DNA of 64,000 nt from Candidatus Omnitrophota bacterium (GCA_003154195.1 PMCS01000005.1:9449-73448), one strand, 5' to 3'. Positions 18,130 through 62,990 are shown, counted from the first letter of the stretch. Numbers and translations are program-made. The notes: generated from the sequence alone by a model not told the origin.

Positions 18130-18245
18130 CCTCCTGTCAAATATTTTTTAATGAGACTTCGCCGAAATCAAGCCCAAAGGGCACAGATTGAGGCGGTAGT
18201 CGAATTACCCTGAGCGACCGAAGGGAGTCGAAGGGTAATGAGCTT
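18130..18245. repeat. Intergenic repeat element, family 2 (modules TAATTCGACTACCGCCTC and CGAAGTCTCATTA), reverse-orientation copy
   Basis: Contains aatgagacttcg and gaggcggtagtcgaatta, the reverse complements of modules seen at 41515-41671 and 62860-62990. Confidence 0.55.
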
Positions 18246-18303
18246 GGAACTTCACTGTAACGACAATCATACTCTATCACAAAAAAAATGAAAAATCCAC
18301 TTT

Positions 18304-19305
18304 TTAGAAAGAAAAAATCTTATTAAAATAACTTGTATAAAACATAACAATCCTATAGCCGATGTAAGCGGCGATGAATATATAAAGAAAAACCGGCACA
18401 ACCGTAACCATTACCGCTACGGCGACGGCATTTTCTTTTTCGCACAGGGACGCCATAGACCCAAGCATTTTATCGATACTGCCGCTCTTTTCTCCCGCCG
18501 TAATCATCCCGATCATATTCGCGCTAAACAGGCGGGTCGCGCTGAATGCTTCGCTTATGCCGCCTCCCCGCTCGATAACCGCTAACCCCCGGAGAATCGA
18601 TTTTTCCACAATACTATTGCCGCAAGCGCCGGCCGCAATCTTCCACCCCTCGATTATGGTTACCCCTGAAGCGCACAGGCATTCCAACGCGCGTACAAAA
18701 CGCGTGGCGACAAACCGGCGCGTTAACTTTCCCCATAACGGAACATTAACGCTAAACAAATCATAAATATTTTTAAACCGGGCCTGCTTAAAAACTTTGC
18801 GTATCCCGAATAACAAAAAAACTATACCATACAGCGGTAATAAAACTTTTAACAACTCGCGCAAATACCCGGCTAAGCCGCAAGTTACCAATGACGTTAT
18901 CGGCAAAACAAAAACGGCAATGTGCAGAAGCAGCACCGGATACGCCAAACCGAAAACAAGGGACTGAAACATCGAGTAGTCTTTTTCAAGATAATCGGCG
19001 ATACGGTTTAACCCATCAGCCAGCCTTCCGGCGGTTTCGCTGTAACGAACGATACTTATATGCCACGCGGGAGAAAAATCCGGCAAAGCGGAAAGCCCGT
19101 CCGCCAGAGTCCCGCCACGCGAGATATGGCGCTTAAGCCGCGCGGCAATATCCTTGATGCGTCCGTTTCCGTGGCCTTGTAAAATATCCATCGCGGCAAC
19201 GACATCAACGCCGGAAATCACCAGCGTCGCCAATTCGCGGTAAAAAACCATTAATATTTTTGTGCGGTTTAAAAACATCGCTTTTTGTTTTATCGTCAAG
19301 GGCAA
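18304..19305 (-). CDS. Type II secretion system F / PilC-family inner-membrane platform protein (two T2SSF repeats)
   Basis: Two halves each with GxTxxEG-type motif (SGVDVVAAMDIL...; ASGVTIIEGWKIAAGACGN...ERGGGISEAF) and TM segments. Confidence 0.65.
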   Translation of the reverse strand: MPLTIKQKAMFLNRTKILMVFYRELATLVISGVDVVAAMDILQGHGNGRIKDIAARLKRHISRGGTLADGLSALPDFSPAWHISIVRYSETAGRLADGLNRIADYLEKDYSMFQSLVFGLAYPVLLLHIAVFVLPITSLVTCGLAGYLRELLKVLLPLYGIVFLLFGIRKVFKQARFKNIYDLFSVNVPLWGKLTRRFVATRFVRALECLCASGVTIIEGWKIAAGACGNSIVEKSILRGLAVIERGGGISEAFSATRLFSANMIGMITAGEKSGSIDKMLGSMASLCEKENAVAVAVMVTVVPVFLYIFIAAYIGYRIVMFYTSYFNKIFSF

Positions 19306-19429
19306 GAAAATACTTATTTTCGGTATGAAATTTTTTACGCGGCAAAAAATAAATATCAGGTAAGATTCTGCGAGTTGGCGCTAAAAAAATAGTTATCCGA
19401 CAATTGGTTACACCCTGCCGCCAAACTTA

Positions 19430-20104
19430 TCAATTGCCGAGAGGGCCGAATGTTCCGCCGAAATCCGCGCCAAGGTCGTCGACGTGCGGCAAATTATTGT
19501 TCTGCAAGGACTCCCGGCAAAACTTTTGAACCAGATCCTTATCTCCCCGCGTAAGCAAAAATTCAATCCTCCCCGCGATCTTCTCCTGCTCTCTTTCGAA
19601 AACAGCATCGATAAGCAAAATAAATACCTTGCCGCAATTGCTAATCGACTTTAAGATTTCGTCTGATGAACCCACTGTTAAATCAGGAGGAGAAGGAACG
19701 ATTATCGTCCTCAAAAATACGCTTAACGCGGTTACGTAAGCGCTTAACACAATGTTGCCGATTTCCTTGAGCGCGGACATACCTAGCTCCGTAAGCGTCG
19801 TTCCTTCCGATAGATGGTAGCCGGGATAGCAGATACTCATAAACTTAGCGGCACTGTCGCTATCAAAGGTTAAAAGAAGTTTGCCGTTTAAACCGGAGAG
19901 GATATCGCACTGCACGCTTACAAAACTATCATGCTTGCCGCGATAAGCGCGTAAAAGATTATCGTCGTGAAAAGGTAAAATCGAAGGCATTAAAACCTTG
20001 ATTTCTTTATTAAGCATTTTCGTAAGCGCGTTTGTGCTGTAGTTAGCGGCAACGCTTCCTATTTCTTTCAGAATATCTAATTCCATCATGCCCCAATCTT
20101 CCAT
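19430..20104 (-). CDS. CheC-like CheY-P phosphatase family protein (CheC/CheX/FliY)
   Basis: ELDILKEIGSVAANYSTNALTKMLNKEI and second repeat LKEIGNIVLSAYVTALS. The likely start is the internal ATG at 20104, preceded by a GGGGGA SD. Confidence 0.6.
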   Translation of the reverse strand: MEDWGMMELDILKEIGSVAANYSTNALTKMLNKEIKVLMPSILPFHDDNLLRAYRGKHDSFVSVQCDILSGLNGKLLLTFDSDSAAKFMSICYPGYHLSEGTTLTELGMSALKEIGNIVLSAYVTALSVFLRTIIVPSPPDLTVGSSDEILKSISNCGKVFILLIDAVFEREQEKIAGRIEFLLTRGDKDLVQKFCRESLQNNNLPHVDDLGADFGGTFGPLGN

Positions 20105-20329
20105 CTTAATCCCCCTATATCTTGACAAAGGTTCTGTAAAAAACGAACCACAGAGTTCACAGAGAAATCGGCAAATTTACCGAATTAGAAAAACCGATTG
20201 TTTTTATTTTACCTCTATCCGGCGAAACAAACAAGCAGAAAATTTTTGCAGGAGAAAACGGTCATTAATAAAAAATGCCTCGACACAGCTGCGAGGCAAG
20301 ATTTTTTTACGATAGCTTGAAGCTAACCG

Positions 20330-20400: not shown

Positions 20401-20427
20401 ATATATTTTTGAACAAAAAGATTGGTT

Positions 20428-20706
20428 CTACCCGGCCATCCGGTCAAACTCTTCGATACTGATCGCCGGAGAAGTGGTAAAGCCGATACCGGTTAACCTG
20501 GTAACCGCTATTGACGCCTTCATCGCCTCTGCGGTTCCGGGAAAATCCACGATAAACGCCAGGTCATACTTTCCTAAAACAGCATACATCGCGCTGACCT
20601 TACCGCCCGCCTTTTCCATCGTCTCAACGGCCTTCTTGGTGCGGTCAGCGGCAATACCCTTAACTGCTTCTGCCGAGTATCTACCGAGCATAATAAATTT
20701 TGCCAT
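20428..20706 (-). CDS. GYD domain protein
   Basis: MAKFIMLGRYSAEAVKGI...GKYDLAFIVDFP typical GYD family. AGGAGG SD upstream. Confidence 0.7.
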   Translation of the reverse strand: MAKFIMLGRYSAEAVKGIAADRTKKAVETMEKAGGKVSAMYAVLGKYDLAFIVDFPGTAEAMKASIAVTRLTGIGFTTSPAISIEEFDRMAG

Positions 20707-20733
20707 ACCGGTTCACCTCCTTTAATGAGCAGA

Positions 20734-20765
20734 TGATTTATGAAATTTTACCAAATTTCATAAAT
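20734..20765. promoter_or_regulatory. Perfect 14-4-14 inverted repeat (GATTTATGAAATTT-TACC-AAATTTCATAAATC) in GYD gene 5' region; candidate operator
   Basis: Perfect palindrome 28-60 nt upstream of the ATG at 20706 on the coding strand. A second perfect palindrome GTTCCGCCTGCAGGCGGAAC lies at 20770-20790. Confidence 0.4.
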
Positions 20766-21026
20766 CATAGTTCCGCCTGCAGGCGGAACGTCTGCGAATT
20801 AAACCCCGCCTTTTTGGCGCTATCGGTAAATTAAACTTTTCTTTATAAGAATAACCGACCTACAATAACAGCAAACCGCTTTCCCACCTAAGCGCCCAGC
20901 CAAAAAGGCGGGGTATCTACCTCTTATGCCATTATTATAAAAATCATCCTATAATACTGCCCTTGCCACATTATTTCAAGATAAAAACCGCCGATCCCAC
21001 GCGTAAAATTTTCCGGATTTTTACGA

Positions 21027-21944: not shown

Positions 21945-22265
21945 GGTTTTATTTTTGTAACGAGAGGGGAAACCGGTAAATTTCGCTATCTCGCGGCTTT
22001 TACTTTCTGCTTAAAACATTATAGCAAAATATAAGCGTCAAGGGAAAGGAAAACATAAAATATTTAAGCGCACTTTAAAAAACTATTTGCGGGGGCAAGT
22101 ATTTATGCTATAATTCTTTCGGTTTTCATATTTATTTTTGCTGCGCAGAAAATAAATATTGTCCGCTTCGCGGATAAAAAATAATAAGACTAACCCGGAA
22201 AATTTTCGCCTTTGCCTAAAAAAACCGGGACTATTAATTTAAATTGTTCTTAAAGTTGAAACTAT

Positions 22266-22342: not shown

Positions 22343-22349
22343 GTATTCA

Positions 22350-23894: not shown

Positions 23895-24025
23895 GTTAAA
23901 CTGGGTTAGGGTAAAGATGAGGAAGCCAGTATGGGTTATGGCTAAGGTTAAGGCTGAAAATTTGTATCAGCCATGGCCCTTGCCCTTACCCAAACCGGCC
24001 GCTTAACCCTGGCCATAGCCTAATC
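23895..24025. repeat. Palindromic intergenic repeat element family 1, copy 2
   Basis: ctgggttagggtaaagatgaggaagccagtatgggttatggctaaggttaaggctgaaaatttgtatcagcc...acccaaaccggccgcttaaccctggcc. Confidence 0.7.
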
Positions 24026-25780
24026 ATTTTCCACATCCAGTTTCCCGCCAAAAGTATCCAGAAGGTCGTTGATAAAATCATTACTTTTCTCATTATCGGC
24101 GCCGGAATCGGCAGATACCCCGCCGCCTTCCGAACCCTGGGTTTTATGCCCGGCGCCGGAAACCGGAATATTCGTGTTTGCCGTAGAAACCGCCAGAGCC
24201 TTATCGACCAGAATAAATTTAATCCCCGCCGGTTTATTCAAAATATGGGCGACTACCCCTTCGATAAATTTAAGATTTTTGCTGCTCTCCACGATTTCTT
24301 TATGAAAGTAATCATTCTTATGGAAAGCGATTCTTATTAAAGAACCTTGCGACGATACCGGCAGAGAATACGACAGATGCGAAGCAATCGCTGCCCTTAC
24401 TTTTTGTATATGTGAAAGAATCTCCTGCCATTTTGCCTTAACCTGACTGAACAACAAATCATCGCTTGCCCGGCTATCTTCATCTTTAGCCGGCGAAGAT
24501 GCGTCGCTTACGCCGGACGCATCATCTTCATCCGGGACAAGCGCATCAATCTCTTTGCTCAGTTGTTCTTCCGTATCCAAATTTACGGCAGCGGCCGCTT
24601 TCCCCTGGGGAACCGAAATTTTATTGGCCGGCGCCGGATTCTGCGGCTTAACCGGCGGCACGGCGGCCTGAACCGGCAAAGCATCTTTACTCTTATCGTA
24701 TAAAAATTTAATCACCGCCAACTCTAAAGGAATCCGGACGGTATTTAATTTCGCGGAATGCTCTTTTGCCTCGAGCAATAAATCAATTACCAGCAAAATC
24801 CGGCCGGCGGTAATGCCCGCGCTTATTTTGCCGAGCAATTCTTTGCTTTGCGGCGACACTTCAGCCAACTCCGTAAAAGTCCGGGGGCTTACTTTGCAAA
24901 GCAGGAGATTCCTTAAATGCTCTACGAGCGAAGATAAAAATATCGCCAGGTCTTTGCCGTCCCGGGACAATCGGTCGATAAGCGAAAGGAGCGGCGTCAA
25001 ATCTTTCTGAATGATAAAGTTAACTGCGTTATTTAAAATATCTTCATCAATGATCCCCAGAAAGGAAAAAATATCGCCCAGGGGCTTTTTTTCCATAACC
25101 AGCGGCATAAGCTGGTCCAGCAAAGACTCGGCGTCACGGATACTTCCGCCGCCGGCGCGGGCAATCGCGTAAAGCAGGTTTTCCTCGATTTTCACGTTTT
25201 CCGCTTCGGTTATTTTTTTAAGTTTAGCGGCAATCTTTTCCTGGGCAACGAGGTTGAATTGAAACTTCTGGCACCGCGACAGAATAGTCGGCAGAACTTT
25301 ATGCGGATGGGTAGTGGCAAAAATAAATTTAACGTGCGGCGGCGGCTCTTCCAGGGTTTTAAGCAGGGCGTTAAACGCCTCCTGGGTAAGCATATGGACT
25401 TCGTCAATGATGTAAATTTTGTAGCGCGAACGCGCCGGCGAAAGCTTGATGCTTTCGATTAAAACCCTTACTTCATCGATCCCGCGGTTGGAAGCGCCGT
25501 CAATCTCAATGATATCCAGCGACGACGCGCGAATAATTTCCGTACAACTCAAACACTGGCCGCAAGGCTTAACGGACGGGCCCTTCTCGCAATTTAATGA
25601 TTTCGCAAAGATCCGGGCGACGGAAGTCTTGCCGATTCCCCGCGGCCCGCTGAAAAGATAAGCATGATGCACGCGCTCTTTTAGAATAGCGTTTTTTAAC
25701 GCAGTAGTAACGTGCTCCTGGCCGACGACATCGTCGAAACATTGGGGGCGATACTTTAAGGCTAACGCTTTATATTCCAT
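24020..25780 (-). CDS. dnaX: DNA polymerase III subunit gamma/tau
   Basis: MEYKALALKYRPQCFDDVVGQEHV, GPRGIGKTS Walker A, zinc module CGQCLSC, and TLEEPP box. The start is the internal ATG at 25780, which sits immediately after the T7GC-N3-GCA8 palindrome with no SD. Confidence 0.9.
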   Translation of the reverse strand: MEYKALALKYRPQCFDDVVGQEHVTTALKNAILKERVHHAYLFSGPRGIGKTSVARIFAKSLNCEKGPSVKPCGQCLSCTEIIRASSLDIIEIDGASNRGIDEVRVLIESIKLSPARSRYKIYIIDEVHMLTQEAFNALLKTLEEPPPHVKFIFATTHPHKVLPTILSRCQKFQFNLVAQEKIAAKLKKITEAENVKIEENLLYAIARAGGGSIRDAESLLDQLMPLVMEKKPLGDIFSFLGIIDEDILNNAVNFIIQKDLTPLLSLIDRLSRDGKDLAIFLSSLVEHLRNLLLCKVSPRTFTELAEVSPQSKELLGKISAGITAGRILLVIDLLLEAKEHSAKLNTVRIPLELAVIKFLYDKSKDALPVQAAVPPVKPQNPAPANKISVPQGKAAAAVNLDTEEQLSKEIDALVPDEDDASGVSDASSPAKDEDSRASDDLLFSQVKAKWQEILSHIQKVRAAIASHLSYSLPVSSQGSLIRIAFHKNDYFHKEIVESSKNLKFIEGVVAHILNKPAGIKFILVDKALAVSTANTNIPVSGAGHKTQGSEGGGVSADSGADNEKSNDFINDLLDTFGGKLDVEND

Positions 25781-25979
25781 ATATTTTTTTGCTCCGCAAA
25801 AAAAATATCCGTTATCCGCTTCGCGGATGAAAAACAAAATTCCGGTATTTCTTGCGCAATATTTTGCTTAACCGGATAAACCAAAATTCTGGGGATAATC
25901 CAATTAAAAGTTTTTATTGTTTTATTGCTTCCCTCTCCCTTCATCATTCGGTCTTCGGTCATCGGTTATTCTAATGCGG

Positions 25980-26288: not shown

Positions 26289-26425
26289 ATTATTAAACTG
26301 GGTCAGGGTAATGGCAAGGATGCCAGTATGGGTTATGGCTAAGGTTAAGGCTGTAAATTCGTATCAGCCCTAGCCTTTACCTTCACCCAAACCGGCTTCG
26401 TAACCTTAACCGTAACCATATATTT
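26289..26425. repeat. Palindromic intergenic repeat element family 1, copy 3
   Basis: ~85% identical to copy 2 over ~125 bp. Confidence 0.7.
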
Positions 26426-26427
26426 TA

Positions 26428-27544: not shown

Positions 27545-27712
27545 GTTGACGCGGTGCTAGGTTAGGGCAATGGTAAAGAAGCCTGTATAGACTATGGCCA
27601 AGTAAAGGCTAAAAAATTGTTTTAAGCCCTTACCTTTACTCATACCGGCTTCCTCACCCTAACCTTAACCGATTACTATTACCGGCTTCCTAACCCTGAC
27701 CTTAGCCTCTTA
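27545..27712. repeat. Palindromic intergenic repeat element family 1, divergent copy 4
   Basis: ggttagggcaatggtaaagaagcctgtatagactatggcc...accggcttcctcaccctaaccttaacc...accggcttcctaaccctgacc. Confidence 0.55.
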
Positions 27713-29228: not shown

Positions 29229-29519
29229 AATAAATATTTTTGCTTTGCAAAAATATTTATCTGGCAAAAAATGCTTTTCCCTAACGCATTTTTTGGGATA
29301 ATTTAGTATATCACCTATCGGTTTTTTATACAATATTTTTTGCGGTAGATTTAAGGAAGGGCTGAAAATATTTGGAAGAAAAATACTCTCATGACGCCGC
29401 CCCAGTTCGAAAAGAACGCTGAAAGCGCTCTTTTCGAACTCGCAGGGGAGGCAGTATCAATGAACCGCCATGGGAGAAATACAAAACTAAGGTTATGAAG
29501 ACGATATTGAAATCGGCTA

Positions 29520-29722
29520 AGGATAGGGTTAGGAAGCCGGTTTGATAAATACTGGGCTAAGGTAAGGGTTACGAGGCCGGTTTGGGCTAAGGTTATGGTT
29601 CGGGTTTAAATCAATATTTTTAGCCCTTGCCTTAACCCTAACCCATACTGGCATCATGGCCCTTGCCCTAACCGTTTTTTAATCCATACCGGCATCGTAA
29701 CCCTTACCTTAACCCGGTATTT
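29520..29722. repeat. Palindromic intergenic repeat element family 1, compound/inverted copy 5
   Basis: Contains arms in both orientations (gggttaggaagccggtttg and gcccttgccttaaccctaacccatactggcatcatggcccttgccctaacc). Confidence 0.6.
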
Positions 29723-29723
29723 A

Positions 29724-31640
29724 CTACTCGTTCTTTTTGCCGGTTTTTCGCACAACCGCGATTACCACAATCAACAACACGACGAACACAACCAATCCGA
29801 TGCCGGATAAAATTATCGCGGGTATGGCGTTGACCGCGCTGCCCAGCATATTGGCGAACATCTCGATCATTCGTTCTCTGGCCTTGTGCAGGTTTTCGCG
29901 CCACAACGCCTTCCATTCTGGGACATACAAATCGAGCGAGATACTGGCGCTGCCGGTAAGGTTCTTACCAGCCAAATCCAACGCCGGGTCTTTCGAATCA
30001 ACGCTGAACCCTTTCACACTGCCTATTTTTTTAAGCGCCGCAATAGCCTCCTCCGCTTTATTCAACGGCACGCGCAAAGCGACTTGCGCGTAATTGCTCG
30101 ACGCCGACTCCTGATTAAACCCACCGGAAATAATTCGGCCGGATTTTTCTTTCGCTAATCCGGCTACCGTGTCGTAAGCTTTTTGCAGGTCGTCGATTTC
30201 TATCTTCAGGTAAGCGCCGTATTTAGCCGCCGGCGCGAATAAATCGACGGTTACCGTGGACATGCTGATAAGGTTGTCCAGTTCCGCCATCCGCGCCTTG
30301 AACATTTCCATCCTGCGCTCATAAGGGGTGAGTTCATTTTCTACGCGGATCGCCTCATCGACGCTATTGGACTTATTTTCGTATTTCTTGCGCAGTTTGT
30401 CGTAAACAACTTTAGTAAGATTAAATTCGGAAAGCAAATTCTTGTACTCTTTAGAGACGTCGCTGCTCTGGAGGTCAAATCCTTTCACACTGCCTAATTT
30501 CTTGATCTCCTCAAGCGCTTCTTCGAGTTTGTTTTTAGGGATACGTAAAATTAATTTCGCCGCTATCTTCGCGGTCAAGCCTTCATCTGTTTTTTCTTCG
30601 CGAAAATTGGCCTGCGCCAGATAGCCGCCTTTAGCTTTAGAAATTTTAGCGGTTTCGCCATAGGCGCTTTGGACATCCGGAACCTCCACGCTGACATTGG
30701 CATTACGGATAACATATTCTTCCTGGCCGGTCGCCGGTAAAGTTATGTCCTGGATAATAATCGGGCCGGTTTCGCCTTCTGCTGCCTGTTCCGCCACAGC
30801 CATGGGGACGATTTTATCGGCAAGCATCCGCTGGGAAAGCTGCATCGCCGAAGCCTTACCGGCAGACTCCCCTATCCAGCCCAATGTTTCCGCTTCCACG
30901 GATGAAGCAGTGCCGGATGCATGATTAAAAAACTTCTCTTCGTGGTCGCCGTGGTACATAGTCTTGCCGTACTGCTGGTCATATATAGGTTTCGCGGAAC
31001 CGACTATTACATTAGCTTTCCCGCTTGCCGCCAGGGCATTGTGCCCGCCACGGGCAAAAAAACTCTTCATGCCCTCTGAAAAACCGGCATCTGAACTCAT
31101 ACCCGTGCTATTCCCAACGTGTGCCTCCCACAAAGCGGAAAGGGCTTTTACATTATTGGATAAAGTTCTCTCTAGGTCCGCGCGATACTCTTGATTGTTG
31201 AAATCGGAGTTGGGCACGGACGTAACCTTTTTGGCGGCTGACAGGCTAAATTCCTCTCCCATCCTGTCCGATGAATCCTTCAGCCGGCCTTGAAACCCGG
31301 CTTTAACAAACACCTGTCCCACCAAAACAAAAATTATAATAGTCGCTAATGCTCCTGAACCGATCCCTACGCCGATCAGTGTTTTCTTATTCATCTTCGA
31401 CACCCCCTTGTATTTTTCGCCCAAAAAATCCGTTCGGATTTTTTGTTCTAAGTCAGGAGTCAACTCCTGCTCTGGCCATTGTTTGAGAACGGACGATAAT
31501 TTTCCTAAATCTCCCAGGTATTTTTTACAACTCTCACAGGTTTGAAGATGTTTTTCAACAAACTCTCTTTCCCGGGGCGAGAGTTCATTGTCCATGTACG
31601 CGCTGATCAATCTTTTTATTCTAAAATGGATAAACATCAT
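29724..31640 (-). CDS. Anti-sigma factor (zf-HC2 type) with single TM, two extracytoplasmic DUF4349-like repeats, and a C-terminal TM anchor
   Basis: N-terminal ISAYMDNELSPREREFVEKHLQTCESCKK (HxxxCxxC) and TM LIGVGIGSGALATIIIFVLVG. Two repeats with KxGxVKGF...DVSKEY...L pattern, and a C-terminal hydrophobic helix. The start overlaps the sigma-factor stop. Confidence 0.6.
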   Translation of the reverse strand: MMFIHFRIKRLISAYMDNELSPREREFVEKHLQTCESCKKYLGDLGKLSSVLKQWPEQELTPDLEQKIRTDFLGEKYKGVSKMNKKTLIGVGIGSGALATIIIFVLVGQVFVKAGFQGRLKDSSDRMGEEFSLSAAKKVTSVPNSDFNNQEYRADLERTLSNNVKALSALWEAHVGNSTGMSSDAGFSEGMKSFFARGGHNALAASGKANVIVGSAKPIYDQQYGKTMYHGDHEEKFFNHASGTASSVEAETLGWIGESAGKASAMQLSQRMLADKIVPMAVAEQAAEGETGPIIIQDITLPATGQEEYVIRNANVSVEVPDVQSAYGETAKISKAKGGYLAQANFREEKTDEGLTAKIAAKLILRIPKNKLEEALEEIKKLGSVKGFDLQSSDVSKEYKNLLSEFNLTKVVYDKLRKKYENKSNSVDEAIRVENELTPYERRMEMFKARMAELDNLISMSTVTVDLFAPAAKYGAYLKIEIDDLQKAYDTVAGLAKEKSGRIISGGFNQESASSNYAQVALRVPLNKAEEAIAALKKIGSVKGFSVDSKDPALDLAGKNLTGSASISLDLYVPEWKALWRENLHKARERMIEMFANMLGSAVNAIPAIILSGIGLVVFVVLLIVVIAVVRKTGKKNE

Positions 31641-33845: not shown

Positions 33846-33960
33846 AAAATAGATAGACAGATGTCAGATGGTCAGATATCAGATGGTCAGATATCAGATG
33901 GTCAGATGCCAGGCAAACAGACAGTAGAGCGCATCTTGTTTCTTATCTGTCTATCTGTTT
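33846..33960. repeat. Tandem CAGATGGTCAGATAT x3 plus inverted repeat atagatagacagat/atctgtctatct
   Basis: Seen directly. Reverse-complement related units (atctgatatctg) occur on the other side of the adjacent gene at 34340-34390. Confidence 0.6.
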
Positions 33961-34349
33961 ATCTGATTATGCCCTTCAAAAACTGAAACAATAAATTGAT
34001 AAAGCATTCTACTCAATTCGTCTATTGTATCCCTTAATTGCACATAAAGCAATTTGTCGCCTAACGATTTTGTTTCAAAAAGCAAATCCAAATGCTCCTT
34101 TGTCTCCTGGTTCGATGCATAAGAACGATGCAAATAATGCAAATATTCATTTTTATAATTCCTCAAAGCGAACCCTTCCACAATCTGTGCTGATACAGAT
34201 TTTGACGATCTTCTTATTTGAGAGCCTTCTTCATATAATTCGAATTGCGGTAGAGTTAAAGACATTTTGTGAATATCGACTGCCAACTTATGCGCTTTTC
34301 CATAGATCTTCAGATCTTCCAACTTCATGCATTTCACCTCCCATCCCAA
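33951..34349 (-). CDS. Four-helix-bundle protein (23S rRNA intervening-sequence protein family, TIGR02436-like)
   Basis: LKIYGKAHKLAVDIHKMSLTLPQFELYEEGSQIRRSSKSVSAQIVEGFA...EHLDLL matches the characteristic helix 1-2 pattern of this family. Confidence 0.65.
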   Translation of the reverse strand: MGWEVKCMKLEDLKIYGKAHKLAVDIHKMSLTLPQFELYEEGSQIRRSSKSVSAQIVEGFALRNYKNEYLHYLHRSYASNQETKEHLDLLFETKSLGDKLLYVQLRDTIDELSRMLYQFIVSVFEGHNQINR

Positions 34350-34390
34350 TCTGTCATCTGTTTATCTGATATCTGCCTATCTGATATCTG
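34340..34390. repeat. ATCTGATATCTG-unit repeat, inverted partner of 33846-33960 repeats
   Basis: catctgtttatctgatatctgcctatctgatatctg. Confidence 0.55.
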
Positions 34391-34774
34391 TTAATCCGCC
34401 GCCTTATTCTTTCTAATTATTATAAACAAACCGGCAAAGGCGCCGAAAGAATTAGCCGCCTGGTCGAGCAGTTCGAAACTCCGGTAAGGAAGAAAATACT
34501 GGATGCATTCGATCGCGAAACCGAAGAAAAAACAGTAAAAAAAGGTAAACCAACGGGGGTATTTTTTGTAACTTCTTAAACGGGTATTGACTAAAATAAA
34601 CGATAACAGAAAATACATCGCGAAATGGACGATTTTGTCGGCATTAGGAAAGGAAACGGCCTTAGGGGTATGGACGGGAATGACCGATACCGTAAAGATA
34701 AAACAACTGTAGATCGCTACGGTAATCCGGGAAAACAAATATGACATAAGCCAACCAAATTTTGCATTGAACAT
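34391..34774 (-). CDS. VanZ-like family membrane protein
   Basis: Four TM segments, KIVHFAMYFLLSFIL and FGFAIECIQYFLPYRSFELLD motifs. Confidence 0.6.
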   Translation of the reverse strand: MFNAKFGWLMSYLFSRITVAIYSCFIFTVSVIPVHTPKAVSFPNADKIVHFAMYFLLSFILVNTRLRSYKKYPRWFTFFYCFFFGFAIECIQYFLPYRSFELLDQAANSFGAFAGLFIIIRKNKAAD

Positions 34775-35549: not shown

Positions 35550-35619
35550 TCAGTATACCAAAAGCCGTTGCCTTGTCAAAATAAAAACCCCCGGCATTTA
35601 CGCCGGGGGATAATTAAAA

Positions 35620-35785
35620 CTTGGTTAGGGCAAGGGTAATGATGCCGGTATGGGCTAAAGACTTGGCTAGGCAAGGGCCATGATGCCAGTATGGGTTAGG
35701 GTTAGGGCTGTAAATTTGTATTAGCCCTGACCTTTGCCTTTACCCAAACGGGCTTCTTAACCCTGGCCTTTACCAATCTTTTTTC
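35620..35785. repeat. Palindromic intergenic repeat element family 1, copy 6 (with duplicated left arm)
   Basis: ggttagggcaagggtaatgatgccggtatgggctaaag + ggcaagggccatgatgccagtatgggttagggttagggctgtaaatttgtattagccctgacctttgcctttacccaaacgggcttcttaaccctggcc. Confidence 0.7.
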
Positions 35786-38700
35786 ACGGCAACGCCGCGA
35801 ACTCCGCCAGGGAGTCCATTTTCCGCAATGAAACAATATTGAAGGTTAAGTGATCAAAAAAATCCGGGCCGATTTTTCCCAGCTCGATTTTACTCGACGC
35901 CGGGCTGGAAGTAACCGGGATATTGGACATTTTGATACCGCCAGGGGAAGATGTGACACCGCCCCCCTGCAATACCCCTATCCGTTCACCAATCATACCT
36001 CTTAATTGTCCATATCTAGCCTCCATCATTGGCCTACTATGCTCACTCCAGCTTCCCTGTCTTGAAGCCATCAACATAGTACCAATCGCTGTAAGCGTAC
36101 CAACATCATTTGCGTTTGTGATCAGCCCTGCTAATACATCTAAAGATCTCTGCACCTGCCCAGCGCTTGCGTCAGGATTACCGTTTGGCTCAGGCAGAGC
36201 TTTCAGATTATTTTGAAGAAGCATGATCTGTTCCTTCGCTCTCGATATTTGACTGGAAGCCGCCGTGGGAGAAGAAACATCCGGCGCAAGGGTGATAGCT
36301 GCCGACTGCACTTGTCCTCCTGTATCCTGTACAAAACCTCTTACCAGCTCGCTCAACATCCTTTCCTCCTGCCGCTGCCGTTCCCCAGTCTCAACCTCTC
36401 TAACCAAATTAGCTAACATGAGCCTTTCCCTCTCGCCCCGCGCCGCCGTTGGCTGCACAGGCGCCCCCATCTGCTGCTCGATCATTCTGTCCGCCCACTG
36501 TGGCCTTACTGCTTCAGCTCTCTTGGCCATCTCCATAGCCTCTCTCGCCCGTTCCTCCATCATCTGGATATCTGACAACTCATTTTTTGCCGCCGCCACC
36601 AATGCCTGAGTAATCTGCTCCTCCAATCGCCCCTTCTCAGCTTCCAATTCTATCACTCTTTTCTGCAGACTCAGCTGTTCTATCGCTGAAAAATTTCTCG
36701 TAGAGAAATTTTCCTCTTGCCTCCGCGCTATTTCTGCCAATTCTGCCTGCAGCCGCGCTATTTCTGCCCGCTGCCGCGCTGTGTACGCTCTTGCAGTTCT
36801 TAACATCTGTGCCCGGCGTAAATCCCCCCATAGCCCCATGGTTTGTTCATCCAGCCTATTCTGCACCGCGCGCAATCTTCTTTGCTCACTTACCCGTTCG
36901 CGTTGTGAGATTTGCTTCGAGAGCTGATCCGTCCGCTGCTGTGTTATTTCCGCCTGCTGCCGCGCTTTTTCCGCCAGATCCCCCGCTATTCTCGCGGCCC
37001 GCTCCTCTCTAGCTACGAAAGCTGACCATACGGCCTCTACTTGTTGCTGCCGCGCTTCTTCTCTAGTCATCACATCGGTAACCCACCGGGCTAGCATTTT
37101 TTCTTCTCTTTCTATTTTATTATCCGCCCTCTGCCGGGCGCTAGTTGCTATTTGCCGGACTGGAAAAATTATCGCCCGGTTTAAACCTTCAATGTGACTT
37201 TCGAGTATTTGTGCGAACTCTGCATCATTAATATCTTGCCCCTCGGTTTGCCTCACCGTAACTTCAATATTTAATTCTGTATTTCCGTCGGCGAGACGTT
37301 GAAGATGAAATACATCCTGTAATTTTTCTTTGCCAATAAAATTAATAAGTGCGACATCCCTGCCGTTAACCCGGATGCTCTCGATATTAGCCATATCGGC
37401 GTAAGCCGCCAACGCTTGCAATAGGTCCCTCACCCGCTTCGATTCTACATTTGCCCAAGGGAATCGCATTGGCAGCAACGCGACAGATTGTCGTAGTTGA
37501 AGCCTCAAAAGCTCTTGCGCCCAATATCGCTGCGCATCAGGAATCTCCTCTTCATATGTTCTTATATTTGCTAAACTGTTCCGCGAATCCCTGTTTTCAA
37601 ACCATCTTAACACCATAGCGCGCGCCGCAAATGCCAGAGTAACAGCGGCCAACCCAAAATCGAACATTGCCATGCGCGAAATCGTAGCCTTTGGAGCATC
37701 GGGAGCCGATGGGCTGCCCGGAACGCTTTCGTAAGCCTTAGTCCCTTGACTTTCAGCTTCCCTATTTCTCGCTACTTTAGCTTTCGCCTCCGTTATCTTT
37801 GCCGTCAACTTGGCTGCTTCATCTTTCAGATAGTTATCTAAATAAGCTGTTCTGGTCTCTTTAACAGTCGCAGCGACTTTTTCGCTTGTTGTAAGGGGAG
37901 TCCCGTCCTTATGAATCAAAGCCCTATTACTCAAAGCCCTCTCGCCGGCATACTGTACCACAGTAGCAGCTCCTGATTCAGATAGCCATCCCTCAAGAGA
38001 AATCTCCTTCGGCGATCCCCCTTCGATAACGGATCGAACCATTTTTCTAATCGCCGCCATTGTTTCCGTTCTTTGCTCCTGTGCTTGAAGGTCGACCAAT
38101 CTCGCTGCATCTACCCAATCTTGCCTTGCCAACGCCTCCTCCAGATCTTTTGCCGGCGGGATGGGGTTTTCCGCAGATAAATACCTGACATTACTTACTG
38201 TCCACCCACCCACCACATTACCACGCACCATATTACCATCCACGATAATGGTATTCCCCTGCATCGGAGAAGAAGCGATAGCGGAAGAAGAAACTGGAGA
38301 AACCACATTGCTATTACCTAGCGTAACCATCGTAACCCCACCCGAAAAGTATCTTCTTCTTACCTGTTTATGGGTAGCTACGTCCGATTCTTTTTTGATG
38401 TAATCATAGATACCTTTTTTGAAAGCTTCGGTATAAAGGTTATAGATCTTCTCTTTCGCTTGCGGGTCATTGATATCGATGCCTTTGATTTTTTTCTGGT
38501 TGATGTAGTGCTTATAGAATGATTCCTTGAACTTCTCTTTAAACCATTTGGCTAAGATAAGAGAGTAATATATTTGCCGCAGGGTCGCGAAGTTCTTACC
38601 GTGATTGACATCGTCAGTAACCTTCGGTACAACCACCTCGCGCATGACGTCGGAAGCGACCTTGTTGACCGCCTGCGCGTTACGTTCGTTGAGCCCGTTA

Positions 38701-39425
38701 ATACCTTTGGAAGATTTTAACCCTGCAACCGGCCCAACCGGCTTAACCGACTCAACGCTTTTATTCAGCGCCAAGAAATCCTCTTCTAACATCGCCTTCA
38801 ACGTCGCCTGATTGACTACGGCGATATTGTTGTGCTCATAGACCTCGGCTTTATCCGGGGTAATCCATATCTTGTTAAAGGTATTGACCGGTATCCTGGT
38901 AGTGCCGAAGTTCTTCGCCGCGGCCTGATAAGTCTTCTGCCAATAGTTCCTACCGGTTTCATTCTCCGGATAGGTCAGGCTTGAGACTAATTGTTTCAGC
39001 ACGTAGTCCTGGGCCAGCATGTCCCGGCCCACGTCGGTCTGAATCGCGGCTTCGTTTACGATGCGGTCTTTTTCATAGACCGAGAGGTTTACCCATAAGT
39101 CATCTTCAGGGATGGTAAGGCCGGCTAAAAAGTAACGGATCAGCCTGGAGACTTCTACCCTATCCACGGTATCCTGGCTGGCGGTGTCAATGACAAATTG
39201 TATCTGCAGAGGATTGTCCGGGTTGATTTTTATCCCTTTTAATATAGGAAAGGAATAGTTGGCGGAAAGGTTTAATAACTGCGTCGGCGAAGGCAAAGCC
39301 AGCGAAGAAGCGCAATAACCCGGCGGGCAAAGGCTTGTGCCGGCAAAGAAAAATAAAACCAACAACGAAATCAATTTAATAAAGATCTTACGTTTAGGCG
39401 AGTTAAGAGAGGTTACCATAAGCAC
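35784..39425 (-). CDS. Giant secreted protein (1213 aa): conserved N-terminal domain shared with the 1-4950 ORF, hydrophobic mid-segment, long R/Q/E-rich coiled-coil region
   Basis: Signal-like N-terminus KIFIKLISLLVLFFFAGTSL. Paralogy to the 1-4950 ORF at protein and DNA level. ~400 aa of heptad-like ERAARIAGDLAEKARQQAEITQQRTDQLSKQ repeats. Confidence 0.7.
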   Translation of the reverse strand: MLMVTSLNSPKRKIFIKLISLLVLFFFAGTSLCPPGYCASSLALPSPTQLLNLSANYSFPILKGIKINPDNPLQIQFVIDTASQDTVDRVEVSRLIRYFLAGLTIPEDDLWVNLSVYEKDRIVNEAAIQTDVGRDMLAQDYVLKQLVSSLTYPENETGRNYWQKTYQAAAKNFGTTRIPVNTFNKIWITPDKAEVYEHNNIAVVNQATLKAMLEEDFLALNKSVESVKPVGPVAGLKSSKGINGLNERNAQAVNKVASDVMREVVVPKVTDDVNHGKNFATLRQIYYSLILAKWFKEKFKESFYKHYINQKKIKGIDINDPQAKEKIYNLYTEAFKKGIYDYIKKESDVATHKQVRRRYFSGGVTMVTLGNSNVVSPVSSSAIASSPMQGNTIIVDGNMVRGNVVGGWTVSNVRYLSAENPIPPAKDLEEALARQDWVDAARLVDLQAQEQRTETMAAIRKMVRSVIEGGSPKEISLEGWLSESGAATVVQYAGERALSNRALIHKDGTPLTTSEKVAATVKETRTAYLDNYLKDEAAKLTAKITEAKAKVARNREAESQGTKAYESVPGSPSAPDAPKATISRMAMFDFGLAAVTLAFAARAMVLRWFENRDSRNSLANIRTYEEEIPDAQRYWAQELLRLQLRQSVALLPMRFPWANVESKRVRDLLQALAAYADMANIESIRVNGRDVALINFIGKEKLQDVFHLQRLADGNTELNIEVTVRQTEGQDINDAEFAQILESHIEGLNRAIIFPVRQIATSARQRADNKIEREEKMLARWVTDVMTREEARQQQVEAVWSAFVAREERAARIAGDLAEKARQQAEITQQRTDQLSKQISQRERVSEQRRLRAVQNRLDEQTMGLWGDLRRAQMLRTARAYTARQRAEIARLQAELAEIARRQEENFSTRNFSAIEQLSLQKRVIELEAEKGRLEEQITQALVAAAKNELSDIQMMEERAREAMEMAKRAEAVRPQWADRMIEQQMGAPVQPTAARGERERLMLANLVREVETGERQRQEERMLSELVRGFVQDTGGQVQSAAITLAPDVSSPTAASSQISRAKEQIMLLQNNLKALPEPNGNPDASAGQVQRSLDVLAGLITNANDVGTLTAIGTMLMASRQGSWSEHSRPMMEARYGQLRGMIGERIGVLQGGGVTSSPGGIKMSNIPVTSSPASSKIELGKIGPDFFDHLTFNIVSLRKMDSLAEFAALP

Positions 39426-41476: not shown

Positions 41477-41514
41477 TCATTTTGCGCAGGAAAAGTGAAT
41501 TATAACCAATTGAG

Positions 41515-41671
41515 CTTTACGGTTTAGGTATATCCAGCACTAATTTTGCCGCGGCAAAATTAGTGCTGGATAATTCGACTACCGCCTCGCGCGGCGCCTT
41601 TCAGGCTTGCTAATTCAACTACGTCCCACCACAATACGGCGGGACAAGTTTCATTACGACGAAGTCTCATT
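41515..41671. repeat. Intergenic repeat element family 2 (17-bp-stem hairpin + TAATTCGACTACCGCCTC + CGAAGTCTCATTA), copy abutting lptG ATG
   Basis: ccagcactaattttgccgcggcaaaattagtgctgg hairpin, then ataattcgactaccgcctc ... cgaagtctcattATG. Confidence 0.6.
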
Positions 41672-42760
41672 ATGCGTATATTAGATAAATATATCCTGAA
41701 AAGCATCACCCGGGCATACCTGTTCGTGCTGGCAGTAACGATCGGGCTCTATTTTATTGCCGATGCCTTTTCCAATCTCTCCGATATCCTGCAGGCGAAA
41801 CCTCCCATCGGAGCAGTAGTTAAATACTACCTTTTTATGCTTCCCTTAATAATCATGCAGACAAGCCCCTACGCCCTGCTGATCGGCGTCTTATACTCCT
41901 TCGGCGAACTGAATAGAAATAACGAGGTTTTAACCATACGCGCTTCGGGGATAAGCCTGGTCAAACTTGCCTTACCCGTATTTTTCTTAGCGTTTACCGT
42001 CTCGGCGGCCGCCCTCTTCGCCCAGGAAACATTACTCGCCGGCTCGCAGAAAGGCGCGGAAGAGCTGAAAATGAAATTTATTAAAAGAGATATTTCCCAT
42101 TCGCGCGATGAAAACAAATTAGCCTTTCATTCCGGCGATACGATATTTTTCGTAGAGAGATTTTCGCCCAAGGACAAAACTCTTTACGAAAGTATAATTT
42201 TTAATGAAAACGATAAAAAAAATATCTCCCGGAGAATGATGTGCAAAAAAATAGTCTACCGGGGTAAAAAATGGGTAGGTGAAGATATCTATGAGTATAA
42301 GCTGGACAGCGACGGCAACATGCTGGGAGTCCCCTCGCAGTATAAAGAGAAAATCATCGAACTGGATGAAAAGCCCGACGAATTGATTTTTAAAAAAAGT
42401 ATCTACGCGCAGTTCTCTTCGTTAAGGAATCTTAAAAAAGAAATGCGCCGCCTGAAAAAAATGAAAGCAACCAACCTGTTTTCCGATATGCTCGTTGATT
42501 TCAACTATAAAATATCGCAGCCGTTCGCGCATTTATTTCTTATTATCGGGGCCATACCCCTGGCGCTGGAAATAAAAAAACGCAAAGCATCCCTCTCTTC
42601 ACTGGGGGTGGGATTTCTTTGCGGATTCTTATATTACTTCGTAAATACCGTCAGCGTCAACCTCGCCAAAACCGGAGTAATCCTGCCCATTCTCGGCGCG
42701 TGGACTGCGCCTTTATTTTTTACCGGCGCGGGAATCACCGCGTTGCTGCTTATTAAATAA
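41672..42760 (+). CDS. LptF/LptG family LPS export permease
   Basis: MRILDKYILKSITRAYLFVLAV, the same architecture as the 40397 gene, C-terminal TMs. Confidence 0.75.
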   Translation: MRILDKYILKSITRAYLFVLAVTIGLYFIADAFSNLSDILQAKPPIGAVVKYYLFMLPLIIMQTSPYALLIGVLYSFGELNRNNEVLTIRASGISLVKLALPVFFLAFTVSAAALFAQETLLAGSQKGAEELKMKFIKRDISHSRDENKLAFHSGDTIFFVERFSPKDKTLYESIIFNENDKKNISRRMMCKKIVYRGKKWVGEDIYEYKLDSDGNMLGVPSQYKEKIIELDEKPDELIFKKSIYAQFSSLRNLKKEMRRLKKMKATNLFSDMLVDFNYKISQPFAHLFLIIGAIPLALEIKKRKASLSSLGVGFLCGFLYYFVNTVSVNLAKTGVILPILGAWTAPLFFTGAGITALLLIK

Positions 42761-58456: not shown

Positions 58457-58465
58457 GCGTATCGA

Positions 58466-59251: not shown

Positions 59252-59263
59252 AATCCACCTCGC

Positions 59264-61622: not shown

Positions 61623-61667
61623 GTTTTCTACCCTAGAACTCGAAAAATGCTACCTTCCTAACGGCAG

Positions 61668-62807
61668 TCAGGCATTTTCCGGGTTAAGCAAAGTAATATA
61701 TTTCAACTCTAATTGTTTGGCAACAGCAGGCCAGCTATAGCGTTCGGCAGCCAATTTTCTTCCTGAAACGCCGAGATTTTCGCGTAAAACGCTGTTTTCC
61801 GCTGCCTGCGCCATCGCCTTAGCCAACGCCCCTTCGTCTCGAAAGGGAACAAACATGATGTTATCACCGTCTTTTCCTATATGGGAAAGCATGCCGATCC
61901 TGGTAGAAATAACCGCCAATCCCGCGGCCCAGGCCTCCAGGACGGTCAACGGCAGACCTTCCAAAAGCGACGGCAGCACAAATACGTCAGCCAGACAATA
62001 CGTTTGTATTAATTTGCCGCGCTCATCGACGGCGCCAAAAAACTTCACGTATCCTTCCAGGCCGAGGCGACACGACAACTCTTCCAAATCTTTTCTCGAG
62101 GGCCCGTCCCCCACTATCCATAATTCAAATTTTAAATTGCGCTCTTTTAATACCGTAACCGCTCTAAGTAAATAATCCAGCCCCTTCAGAGGTTCGATTC
62201 TTCCCACATAGATAAATTTTACGCCCCCGTTTTTACTTAAGCAAAGATTATTTTTTGCCTCTCCGAACTGTTCATAATCAACCCCCGCGATGTTAAAATA
62301 TTCGAAATTGCGCAGTTTATATTTTTTAAATAAAGGCAGAAGATTATAATCAATGGTGATGATTTTATCAAATAACCCAAACCTTAAAAAAAACCATTCC
62401 GAATAACGTTTAACAACCGCCAAGTGGGGATGAGGAAAAGTGATGCTGTGACATGTCTGGATTACAGGGATGCGCCAAATCTTCGCCCACAAAGCAATAA
62501 AAAAACCCAGGTCGCAGGCGTGGCTGTGTATGATATCGGGCTTCAGTTTTTTTAAAATAAAAAAAGACTTGAAAAAAAATAAGGCCAGCGACAATACTCT
62601 TTTCAGGTTAACCCCATCCCAATCGAAAGATGAGGTCAACAACCCGAATTTATAAATATTTTCCTTAGATATTGCTTCTCTGCTGTTAGCGGTAAGCACA
62701 AACACATCATGGCCGGCCGCTGCCTGCTGGATCTGAAGATTATAAACACAAACCGCGTCGCCGCCGATAGCGTTGGGATATTTTTTCGTAACATGCAATA
62801 TGCGCAT
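61668..62807 (-). CDS. GT4 (GT-B fold) glycosyltransferase
   Basis: The C-terminal PSLLEGLPLTVLEAWAAGLAVISTRIG contains the EX7E-type motif. Confidence 0.75.
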   Translation of the reverse strand: MRILHVTKKYPNAIGGDAVCVYNLQIQQAAAGHDVFVLTANSREAISKENIYKFGLLTSSFDWDGVNLKRVLSLALFFFKSFFILKKLKPDIIHSHACDLGFFIALWAKIWRIPVIQTCHSITFPHPHLAVVKRYSEWFFLRFGLFDKIITIDYNLLPLFKKYKLRNFEYFNIAGVDYEQFGEAKNNLCLSKNGGVKFIYVGRIEPLKGLDYLLRAVTVLKERNLKFELWIVGDGPSRKDLEELSCRLGLEGYVKFFGAVDERGKLIQTYCLADVFVLPSLLEGLPLTVLEAWAAGLAVISTRIGMLSHIGKDGDNIMFVPFRDEGALAKAMAQAAENSVLRENLGVSGRKLAAERYSWPAVAKQLELKYITLLNPENA

Positions 62808-62859
62808 AAGCTTCTGAAAATATTAACCAGCCGGAAAAAGTTGGCTTGCCACCGGCTGA

Positions 62860-62990
62860 AGTCAGTGGATTTGGTATAGCCAGCGCTAATTTTGACGCAG
62901 CAAAATTAGCGCTGGCTAATTCGACTGCTGCCTCACTGAGCGCGCGTAGCGCGCTCGTTCGGCGAAGTCTCATTATTAAAAATCAGCCGT
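62860..62990. repeat. Intergenic repeat element family 2, copy with covarying hairpin
   Basis: ccagcgctaattttgacgcagcaaaattagcgctgg + ctaattcgactgctgcctc + ggcgaagtctcattatt. Confidence 0.6.

Follow-up and report, generated by a model that had tools for sequence, protein, structure and literature searches.

Background

Ssn nucleases are single-domain GIY-YIG proteins of ~94 amino acids, and hairpin repeats stand on both sides of their genes (Chenal et al. 2025, PMC11893778). Ssn repeats, such as the Neisseria NTS/dRS3 and other "Ssn-related motifs", also occur in hundreds of mostly intergenic copies, and the enzymes bind and cut the hairpins solely as single-stranded DNA and solely on one strand (PMC11893778). 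The same authors note a resemblance to insertion sequences, leave mobility as a hypothesis, and propose a domesticated host function for the NTS repeats (PMC11893778). Here we analyse a hairpin repeat family in a 64,000-nt stretch of DNA (the window; GCA_003154195.1, PMCS01000005.1:9449-73448) from an uncultured bacterium in peat at Stordalen Mire, a member of Candidatus Omnitrophota. The window contains six hairpin copies, all intergenic, which are probably non-autonomous, gene-less derivatives of a tiny selfish DNA element. This element is common in Candidatus Omnitrophota, and its full form has a GIY-YIG nuclease gene as its only gene. The evidence comes from the anatomy of the repeats, the covariation of their stems, their association with nuclease genes, insertion relative to related genomes, nesting, tandem arrays, and target duplications.

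The family shares several traits with the Ssn system. Its protein is a single-domain GIY-YIG protein of ~90 amino acids (encoded at related loci, with none in the window), hairpin repeats lie on the 5' and 3' sides of the gene in an insertion-sequence-like architecture, and further repeats are scattered, mostly between genes, with their orientation set by non-palindromic flanks. The NTS core GTC-ATT-CCC…GGG-AAT-C also resembles AGTCTCATTA-CCC…GGG-TAATTC, which is found at 18208-18245 and 7654-7692. Unlike the Ssn repeats, which span 20-50 nt, the hairpin here spans 37-66 nt in total, its two internal loops are conserved, and its upper stem varies freely. A second, inner repeat pair hugs the gene, and the repeat encodes the gene's C-terminus. 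Omnitrophota are unmentioned in PMC11893778, and insertion, nesting, target duplication and gene-less derivatives, which are hypothesis only in that paper, are directly visible here. By analogy, the present family would work like the Ssn system and may belong to it. Plasmid homologues of the nuclease (Sphingomonas, Legionella), considered as an anchor to the Ssn genes, have no published-consensus repeats flanking them.

Hairpin structure and covariation

An earlier note on the window had described this family as three copies (A, B and C below) built from two conserved modules. Module 1 (TAATTCGACTRCYGCCTC) indeed occurs at exactly three sites in the window, 18190-18207 on the minus strand and 41571-41588 and 62917-62934 on the plus strand, where shuffling gives an expectation of 0.17 and none of 100 shuffles gave three. 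Module 2 (GGCGAAGTCTCATTA) follows 40-85 nt downstream in every copy, at 18149-18163 (minus), 62961-62975 (plus) and, with one mismatch, 41658-41672 (plus). All three copies are real, and the window holds three more, at 41611-41656 (nested within copy A), 7687-7744 and 20723-20801. A covariance model built on related sequences detected the copy at 7687-7744, and the copy at 20723-20801 was found when the second helix was left free. The modules are not separate units: folding of the window copies shows them to be the 5' and 3' strands of one stem, and every copy folds into the same stem with 2x2 and 2x1 internal loops.

In this stem, YAAT-TC-GACT…AGTC-TC-ATTR closes a variable stem-loop. The layout of the fold is UAAU-UC-GACU-AC-CGCC-UC-(variable hairpin)-UY-GGCG-A-AGUC-UC-AUUA, in which two conserved 4-bp helices are split by a 2x2 UC/UC loop and followed by a 2x1 loop and then by a stem of variable sequence and length. 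We call the 3' side of the hairpin its ATTR end.

Scanning one genome per species for the exact pattern gave 17 loci in ~11 metagenome-assembled genomes (MAGs), nearly all Omnitrophota, plus one Salegentibacter isolate, with ~0.1 chance matches expected. A looser pattern found at least 116 metagenome stretches. The fetched loci, given below by L-numbers, contain 143 distinct hairpin instances, 101 of which pass a strict inner-stem test. A comparable pattern matched viral contigs 21 times, and 20 of these matches had no stem at all; this is how chance matches appear, so the stems are not created by the search pattern. A phage origin was rejected, the viral-contig matches being chance-like with the exception of L146. 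In the isolate (L014 4718-4776, Salegentibacter sediminis NZ_MSJR01000002.1), a well-formed hairpin with an upstream short hairpin lies between convergent genes. Through this member of the Bacteroidota, the family extends past Omnitrophota, and a culturable host may exist. Rfam contains no family at the repeat (searched with the window, with copy A at a permissive threshold, and with 17 related loci, at gathering scores and at E up to 10). Literature searches with the two module sequences gave chance matches only, and the literature on Omnitrophota repeats and on GIY-YIG mobile elements gave nothing specific apart from the Ssn paper.

Copies A and B also carry a long hairpin upstream of the terminal one, which had been described as a 17-bp stem with one compensatory change. 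The hairpin is present in both copies, its stem is 19 bp in copy A, and there are two double changes that keep pairing: A41539-T41564 vs G62885-C62910 and T41533-A41570 vs G62879-C62916. Correlated changes also preserve pairing in the wider family. Across 38 sequences of 55-60 nt, a set which had already passed a stem filter that favours the third helix, 94.6% of paired cells are complementary vs 74.9% in shuffles (0 of 500 shuffles reached this value), 126 cells are double changes vs 35 in shuffles, and slid controls pair at only 20-46%. The terminal pair, which was free in the search pattern, is T..A in 54 cases, C..G in 27, T..G in 12 and C..A in none. The second helix occurs as GACT, AACT, GCAT, GCAC, GCGC, AGCC, GGCC or GCAG, each with its complement. 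Only 7 of 608 cells are G-U, three of them at the terminal pair, so pairing is otherwise nearly pure Watson-Crick.

The structure is clearly maintained, and the pattern looks like that of a DNA palindrome. Template switching between the arms of a palindrome can also yield correlated changes, so covariation alone is no proof of selection on an RNA. DNA folding parameters rate both strands equally. The lack of orientation bias (see below), the near absence of G-U pairs and the absence of an Rfam family favour a DNA hairpin over an RNA.

Gene context and the structured RNA alternative

The earlier note had suggested a mobile promoter or 5' untranslated region cassette, or a small structured RNA. 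The family is dispersed and looks mobile, as proposed; the promoter, dedicated leader and small RNA parts of the suggestion find no support. The most serious competing explanation is a structured RNA, i.e., a cis element in 5' leaders or between cistrons that acts on processing, stability or translation, or a copied small RNA gene. We judge it unlikely. The strong covariation described above fits an RNA, and so does much of the gene context. For example, 57 of 143 copies have a same-strand gene start within 80 nt of their 3' end (in 25 of these cases a Shine-Dalgarno-like sequence lies within 14 nt), and nearly half (20/42) of the co-directional long genes (>=150 amino acids) start within 20 nt of the ATTR end. 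The forward strand is also rich in TTCG (174 vs 35 for CGAA), CTTCGG (25 vs 0) and GCTTCGC (27 vs 0), and the terminal pair can be U-G and never C-A. However, the TTCG enrichment is equally an enrichment of the C-GAA-G triloop on the opposite strand, which is a very stable DNA mini-hairpin, and the variable helices are nearly free of G-U pairs.

Orientation also speaks against an RNA. Right neighbours run in the direction of the copy in 42 cases and against it in 44, i.e., there is no orientation bias, and within co-directional gene pairs antisense copies (19) are about as many as sense copies (23). Many copies do stand directly ahead of a Shine-Dalgarno sequence and start codon, in line with the earlier note's remark on start codons. 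Its statement that the terminal module directly precedes a start codon in two of three copies holds for copy A alone; copy C is 57 nt away and copy B adjoins a stop codon. The ATTR end does adjoin gene boundaries: of 44 convergent genes, 14 have their stop at -6 to +3 nt from it, and the reverse of TCATTA is TAATGA, which contains stop codons. On the other side of the hairpin, genes lie at widely differing distances, mostly 50-150 nt. No common function links the downstream genes (rpsK, clpC, an AsnC-type regulator, gap, lptG, GYD and others), and the hairpins flank a nuclease gene as inverted pairs that extend into its coding sequence. Taken together, unbiased orientation, unrelated genes and the lack of an Rfam match argue against a riboswitch, a dedicated leader, a promoter cassette or a small RNA gene.

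A riboswitch or leader was discarded in view of the unrelated downstream genes and the unbiased orientation. A promoter cassette was rejected because several hairpins contain TTGACA at a wrong or variable spacing from -10-like hexamers, and the sole good promoter, near copy C, is external to the repeat. This is a perfect sigma-70 consensus (TTGACA-16-TATAAT, 18113-18140, minus strand), which lies directly downstream of copy C, within the 57 nt that separate the copy from the ATG of the DUF2934 gene, and 20 nt before that ATG. A c-di-GMP-I (cyclic dimeric GMP) riboswitch (67 bits) was seen at L015 2182-2262 on the minus strand, and a hairpin copy lies 87 nt away on the other strand; this proximity is probably coincidental.

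The full-length element and its nuclease gene

When open reading frames (ORFs) within 2.5 kb of the copies were clustered, a small GIY-YIG family, present in five loci, was the second most recurrent neighbour behind ABC-type ATPases. No transposase or integrase family, Y1 (IS200/IS605-like) transposases included, was recurrent among these neighbours. The nucleases are 73-111 amino acids long, with PF01541 as their only significant domain. A profile search returned >5000 relatives, and among the best 120 of these, all 14 members of one subfamily end in KCQGFNS. This C-terminus is the translation of AAATGTCAAGGGTTTAATTC, which consists of the inner inverted repeat and the first six bases of the hairpin. 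In several proteins the called N-terminus is LTLDIL, which the left inner repeat encodes.

Five distinct loci of this subfamily (L012, L173-175, L176, L178 and L179/180) were found from the protein side and fetched, and all five have a hairpin at the gene's 3' end and a reverse-oriented hairpin upstream. The spacing of the pair is 289-297 nt in L012, L173-175 and L179/180, as found by exact search; the pairs in L176 and L178 were recognised with the covariance model and by eye. These elements occupy unrelated sites within conserved operons (between yceD and rpmF, between trmD and rplS, in a gas-vesicle cluster, and others). They are oriented like the host genes, and the next host gene, beginning with its ribosome-binding site and ATG, follows the forward hairpin.

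The full-length element is ~420-520 bp long. It begins with a reverse terminal hairpin (YAATGA-P2…P2'-GAATTR), followed by an inner repeat (e.g., CCCTTGACATTTT) and the single-domain GIY-YIG gene of ~85-110 amino acids, and it ends with the inverted inner repeat AAAATGTCAAGGG, TT and the forward terminal hairpin (YAATTC-P2…P2'-TCATTR). Gene-less copies that keep both inner repeats are found in L118, L013 and L057 and in the window at 20804-20913. In L118 the two form the hairpin CCCTTGACAATTTTCTCatgtGAGAAAATTGTCAAGGG, i.e., CCCTTGACAATTTTCTC-atgt-GAGAAAATTGTCAAGGG, and L057 carries a long hairpin of the window type with a CCATGG loop. The long hairpins of copies A and B (…ATTTTGC / GCAAAAT…) share the design of the gene-flanking inner repeats and are most likely inner repeats that fused after loss of the gene. 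No full-length element with inner repeats identical to the window's long hairpin was found among the fetched loci. A consensus search for inverted partners upstream of short copies gave spurious matches only; the search with the second helix left free succeeded.

The gene could instead be a free-standing homing endonuclease that uses pre-existing host hairpins, with a function of their own such as genome structuring or transformation control, as landing sites. T4 SegB, a free-standing GIY-YIG homing endonuclease encoded in a phage tRNA gene cluster, is a precedent (PMC2330249). Like the genes here, T4 seg genes are small GIY-YIG genes between conserved genes, in host orientation and often beside tRNA genes (PMC2330249), and the domesticated host role proposed for NTS repeats (PMC11893778) points the same way, as does the lack of a nearby nuclease gene at most short copies. 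We nevertheless regard this explanation as quite unlikely, since the C-terminus is encoded by the inner repeat and first hairpin bases in 14/14 proteins, and the symmetric arrangement recurs at five unrelated host sites. The short copies keep the gene's own inner repeats, which fits deletion derivatives, not independent host hairpins. Seg proteins differ from the proteins here in having an extra DNA-binding domain, and their genes home to one and the same site rather than to many sites per genome. To our knowledge, seg genes have neither hairpin ends nor gene-less derivatives.

A second GIY-YIG subfamily was seen among the loci. Its proteins have 84-102 amino acids and the N-terminus MYYVYVLLSLKD or a close variant, and its genes lie near position 2001 in L163, L167, L170 and L177 and at 426-695 in L063. 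They stand directly after an apparent tRNA 3' end (L163, L177, L063) or the 3' end of a transfer-messenger RNA (L167), with just a short tRNA-like fragment before the gene in L170. Their hairpins (e.g., GCTGAACCACGTAGGGTTCAGC) differ from the one studied here, and the covariance model has no match in them. Judging from these sequences, they look like a sister element family with another target and other ends.

Evidence for mobility

Copy A fills the gap between lptF and lptG, which is 195 nt in the window. In the two nearest relatives (LptG 54-56% identical) these genes overlap, by 17 and 13 nt; with the nearest LptG just 56% identical, this comparison gives the ancestral arrangement and not the exact ends of the insert. 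ATGCG flanks the inserted block at both junctions (41455-41459 and 41672-41676), and the terminal codons of lptF (KNIG and the stop) fall within it. As the earlier note had observed, copy A ends at the ATG of the second lptFG-like gene: the final A of the outer hairpin is the A of the lptG start codon (ATTATG). Copy A also has another complete hairpin nested inside it, and in L057 a hairpin of the same type is uninterrupted. L016, L031, L037, L116 and L119 carry tandem arrays.

Target duplications are a further sign of insertion. In 14 of 136 copies vs 0 of 128 controls, at least 12 nt of the right flank recur upstream, and the duplications range from 5 to ~110 nt. Most are parts of tRNA genes, with a complete tRNA on the far side and a partial copy adjoining the ATTR end. 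Their junctions lie in the D-loop or 5' acceptor (L030, L051, L050, L092, L105), the anticodon loop (L009, L021), the T-loop (L053, L017, L132) or the 3' acceptor (L007). Other targets are duplicated as well: in L118 the duplication is 19 nt and spans a gene's end together with the ribosome-binding site of the gene that follows. Duplications can also bound units with the nuclease gene, such as the tRNA-His repeats around a stretch with the GIY-YIG gene in L034 and the 13-nt direct repeat around the GIY-YIG gene and hairpin in L012. Because parts of the target are duplicated, insertion spares what it would otherwise destroy. There is no consensus among the right flanks that would indicate a fixed target sequence. 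A reading of the tRNA-linked copies as tRNA-like structures or introns was rejected, since an intact tRNA is adjacent and the 3' half is missing after the element. At L009 2890-2960, L050, L101 and L105, tRNA genes have upstream of them a conserved hairpin (GGCACTGAGG…CCGAAGTGCC or a variant) and, after it, an AT-rich stretch that resembles a promoter; this block is often included in the target duplication.

Dispersal could also be the work of a tyrosine transposase encoded elsewhere, in which case the repeats would be repetitive extragenic palindromes (REPs, including REPINs) and the GIY-YIG genes unrelated neighbours. The copies are indeed many short, imperfect palindromes that lie between genes or at their ends, in either orientation and in some cases paired or in tandem, a behaviour that is general for REPs (PMC2817692, PMC3116915). 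The presumed recognition of a single-stranded hairpin by the enzyme of the flanked gene is likewise shared with REPs and their associated tyrosine transposases (RAYTs). REPs are palindromes of 20-40 nt with a tag at one end, GTAG or CGTC in the REP superfamilies (PMC3733652). This tag is not conserved here; the conserved ends are YAATTC and TCATTR. ACTAC (GTAG on the other strand) occurs in 35 of 101 copies, 3' of the variable stem on that strand and not at the element end. The enzyme here is a GIY-YIG nuclease rather than an HUH tyrosine transposase, and Y1 transposases are not among the recurrent neighbours within 2.5 kb, though a single such gene could lie elsewhere in each genome. As a rule, REP sequences are specific to one species, whereas the base of this hairpin is conserved throughout a phylum. 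We consider a REP-like origin very unlikely, as it also leaves the GIY-YIG link, including the shared coding sequence, unexplained.

The tRNA junctions raise one more alternative, that the copies are attachment sites or scars of small integrative elements whose site-specific recombinase enters tRNA genes and binds the hairpin. Many copies do have a partial tRNA at the ATTR end and a complete tRNA opposite, and the junctions in the anticodon loop, T-loop and 3' acceptor end coincide with the usual sublocations of integrase crossovers. But there is no integrase or recombinase gene in or near any unit, the units are just 100-500 bp, most copies are away from tRNA genes, and the duplications in L118 (19 nt) and L012 (13 nt) have non-tRNA targets, so we hold this explanation to be highly improbable. 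We give almost no credence to the idea that a transcript or DNA strand reaching from the nuclease gene through the hairpin into the flank serves as a homing guide, as in TnpB.

Comparison with other mobile elements

[quoted passage not shown] They are gene-less derivatives of an autonomous element that sit between genes and inside operons, can supply stop codons or precede ribosome-binding sites, and form nested and tandem insertions. Internal deletion from an autonomous element, a MITE trait, is seen here in the short copies that keep both inner repeats. Unlike MITEs, this family has no DDE transposase parent, mostly has one terminal hairpin rather than two inverted ends, and has target duplications of 5 to ~110 nt rather than the fixed length of classical MITEs.

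IS200/IS605 elements are comparable in the strand-specific recognition of hairpins at or near their ends, which is presumed for the present family, and in their gene-less miniatures. A precise 3' end that overlaps the end of the encoded gene is another parallel (cf. TnpB and its guide RNA). Unlike them, the present family has neither TnpA nor TnpB, and the fixed tetranucleotide next to which IS200/IS605 elements insert, without target duplication, is not seen here. The comparison with tRNA-targeting integrative elements fails on gene content, as units of 100-560 bp hold at most the GIY-YIG gene and no recombinase family is recurrent. In sum, REP/RAYT systems, MITEs, tRNA-integrative elements and homing endonucleases each share traits with the family but fail at least one defining feature. 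It is possible, though still doubtful, that the elements constitute an unrecognised class of prokaryotic transposon, with a ~90-residue Ssn-like GIY-YIG nuclease as sole protein, single-stranded hairpin ends as its means of movement, entry at gene boundaries and in tRNA genes, variable target duplications, and gene-less miniatures.

Proposed mechanism and points against it

By analogy with Neisseria SsnA/NTS, the hairpins would act as DNA, folded when single-stranded. The nuclease would recognise the folded single-stranded hairpins and by cutting would set off the unit's movement or copying, with gene-less copies mobilised in trans. The element would insert at the borders of genes and into tRNA genes, often with duplication of a target stretch of variable length. 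Insertions in operons would be harmless and hence tolerated, because the outer ends read TAATGA and the usual site is directly before the next ribosome-binding site. The hairpins may also have secondary effects on RNA.

Several observations weigh against a nuclease-driven selfish element. The GIY-YIG gene is absent from the 64-kb window (by tblastn and profile search), and most short copies have a single terminal hairpin, not an inverted pair. Duplications are found in only ~10% of copies and vary from 5 to ~110 nt, the full-length elements L173 and L176 have no clear duplication, and no known nuclease-only mechanism fits. The nuclease gene might be a passenger that targets the hairpins, not the agent of their spread. 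The link to Ssn is also imperfect. The Ssn consensus, HGTCWYN(0-2)YYVSBRHN(0-5)WNVSBRGN(0-2)RNCYNB, has no match in 13 loci with a GIY-YIG gene (in the window it has one match, at an unrelated place, vs 0.5 expected), and the best solved relatives of the proteins are the UPF0213 proteins 1zg2 and 1ywl (E 2.5e-19), the Ssn clade being CDD cd10448. Finally, the strand signals conflict. RNA folding is better for the reverse strand in 134 of 143 copies, because the UC/UC loops turn into tandem G-A there, and isolated mismatches are more often A-C (17) than G-T (8), while T..G terminal pairs without C..A and the TTCG excess mark the forward strand.

Copies and other features of the window

The coordinates of the six copies are given in Table 1. 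In the nested copy of 41611-41656 the second helix is AACT/AGTT rather than GACT/AGTC, and in the copy of 7687-7744 it is wholly exchanged to GCGC/GCGC. Copy B is antisense to its neighbour genes on both sides, and its right end adjoins the TAA stop codon of a convergent AbiEii gene (62976-63752, minus strand). The last TTA of the fifth copy is the stop codon of a HAMP/HD gene (7742-9172, minus strand), and the sixth copy is directly followed by AAGGAGG and the ATG of a GYD-domain gene (20428-20706, minus strand). Upstream of copy C, AAGCTCATTA looks like the right half of an older, decayed copy, going by its sequence, and would be a remnant.

Table 1. Positions of the hairpin copies, their parts and a further repeat family in the window
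Feature	Position (nt)	Strand	Basis or remark
Copy A, entire inserted block in lptF/lptG gap	41460-41672	+	sequence reading; left boundary inferred
Copy A, long hairpin (19 bp)	41531-41572	+	DNA fold -19.6 kcal/mol, z -9.5
Copy A, outer terminal hairpin, TAATTCGACTACCGCC … CGACGAAGTCTCATTA	41571-41672	+	apical part split by nested copy
Nested complete hairpin inside copy A, without upstream hairpin	41611-41656	+	covariance model 37.7 bits, E 1e-10
Copy B, whole	62867-62975	+	covariance model 49.3 bits; folding
Copy B, 10-nt leader		+	
Copy B, long hairpin	62877-62918	+	
Copy B, terminal hairpin	62917-62975	+	
Copy C, terminal hairpin	18149-18207	-	covariance model 66 bits, E 1e-21
Copy C, upstream short hairpin, CCCTTCGACT…GCTCAGGG	18208-18235	-	reading and folding
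AAGCTCATTA preceding copy C short hairpin	18236-18245	-	sequence reading
Fifth copy, whole	7654-7744	+	covariance model 22.4 bits, E 7e-5; second-helix-free search; folding
Fifth copy, AAGTCTCAAA	7654-7663	+	
Fifth copy, short hairpin, CCCCTTCGCTAACGCTTCAGGGG	7664-7686	+	
Fifth copy, terminal hairpin	7687-7744	+	
Sixth copy, whole	20723-20913	-	search with second helix left free; DNA fold z -9.05
Sixth copy, inner inverted repeat, CCCCGCCTTTTTGGC	20899-20913	-	~80 nt from its partner
Sixth copy, inner inverted repeat, GCCAAAAAGGCGGGG	20804-20818	-	~80 nt from its partner
Sixth copy, terminal hairpin, TAATTC-GCAG…CTGC-TCATTA, after TT	20723-20801	-	
Repeat family of ~100-nt units	6088-6192, 23897-24029, 26294-26426, 27553-27711, 29506-29726, 35611-35776		

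The window contains other repeats. A 62-nt GC-rich repeat (82% identity) occurs at 7547-7608, just upstream of the fifth copy, and at 16933-16994. Another family has ~100-nt units rich in GGTTAGGG / CCCTAACC, both direct and inverted, which flank several genes; it is probably the "family 1" of the earlier note. A 15-nt tandem repeat, AGATGGTCAGATATC, has about four units at 33851-33910 and an inverted partner 440 nt away at 34349-34396. This pair brackets an ORF (33951-34349), which the same-species locus L001 gives as PF05635, 23S_rRNA_IVP. The small hairpin TTATCCGCTTCGCGGATAA occurs at 16815-16833, 22162-22180 and 25815-25833 in AT-rich surroundings and could be a terminator or another short hairpin repeat. 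Lastly, ~1 kb at 3830-4836 is 72-80% similar to 38335-39302, which lies inside a 1213-amino-acid ORF (35784-39425), so a partial paralogue of that protein is found near the start of the window.

Significance

The pairing of a nuclease with flanking hairpins was described only in 2025, when mobility was speculation. The family reported here adds the missing sequence evidence: copies at many unrelated sites, an insert between lptF and lptG, nesting, tandem arrays, target duplications, and a series from gene-carrying to gene-less forms. It suggests that GIY-YIG nucleases drive a little-known kind of mobile DNA, in a poorly known and uncultured phylum. It also shows how such an element survives in essential operons and tRNA genes, i.e., through ends that supply stop codons, a position before the ribosome-binding site, and target duplication.

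There are practical consequences as well. Each nuclease-hairpin pair is a candidate site-specific single-stranded-DNA nuclease with a new specificity, and the hairpins account for odd C-terminal extensions, odd stop codons and partial tRNA genes in the annotation of Omnitrophota MAGs. If the elements do form a new transposon class, the same logic would explain the expansion of Ssn-related repeats such as Neisseria NTS/dRS3.

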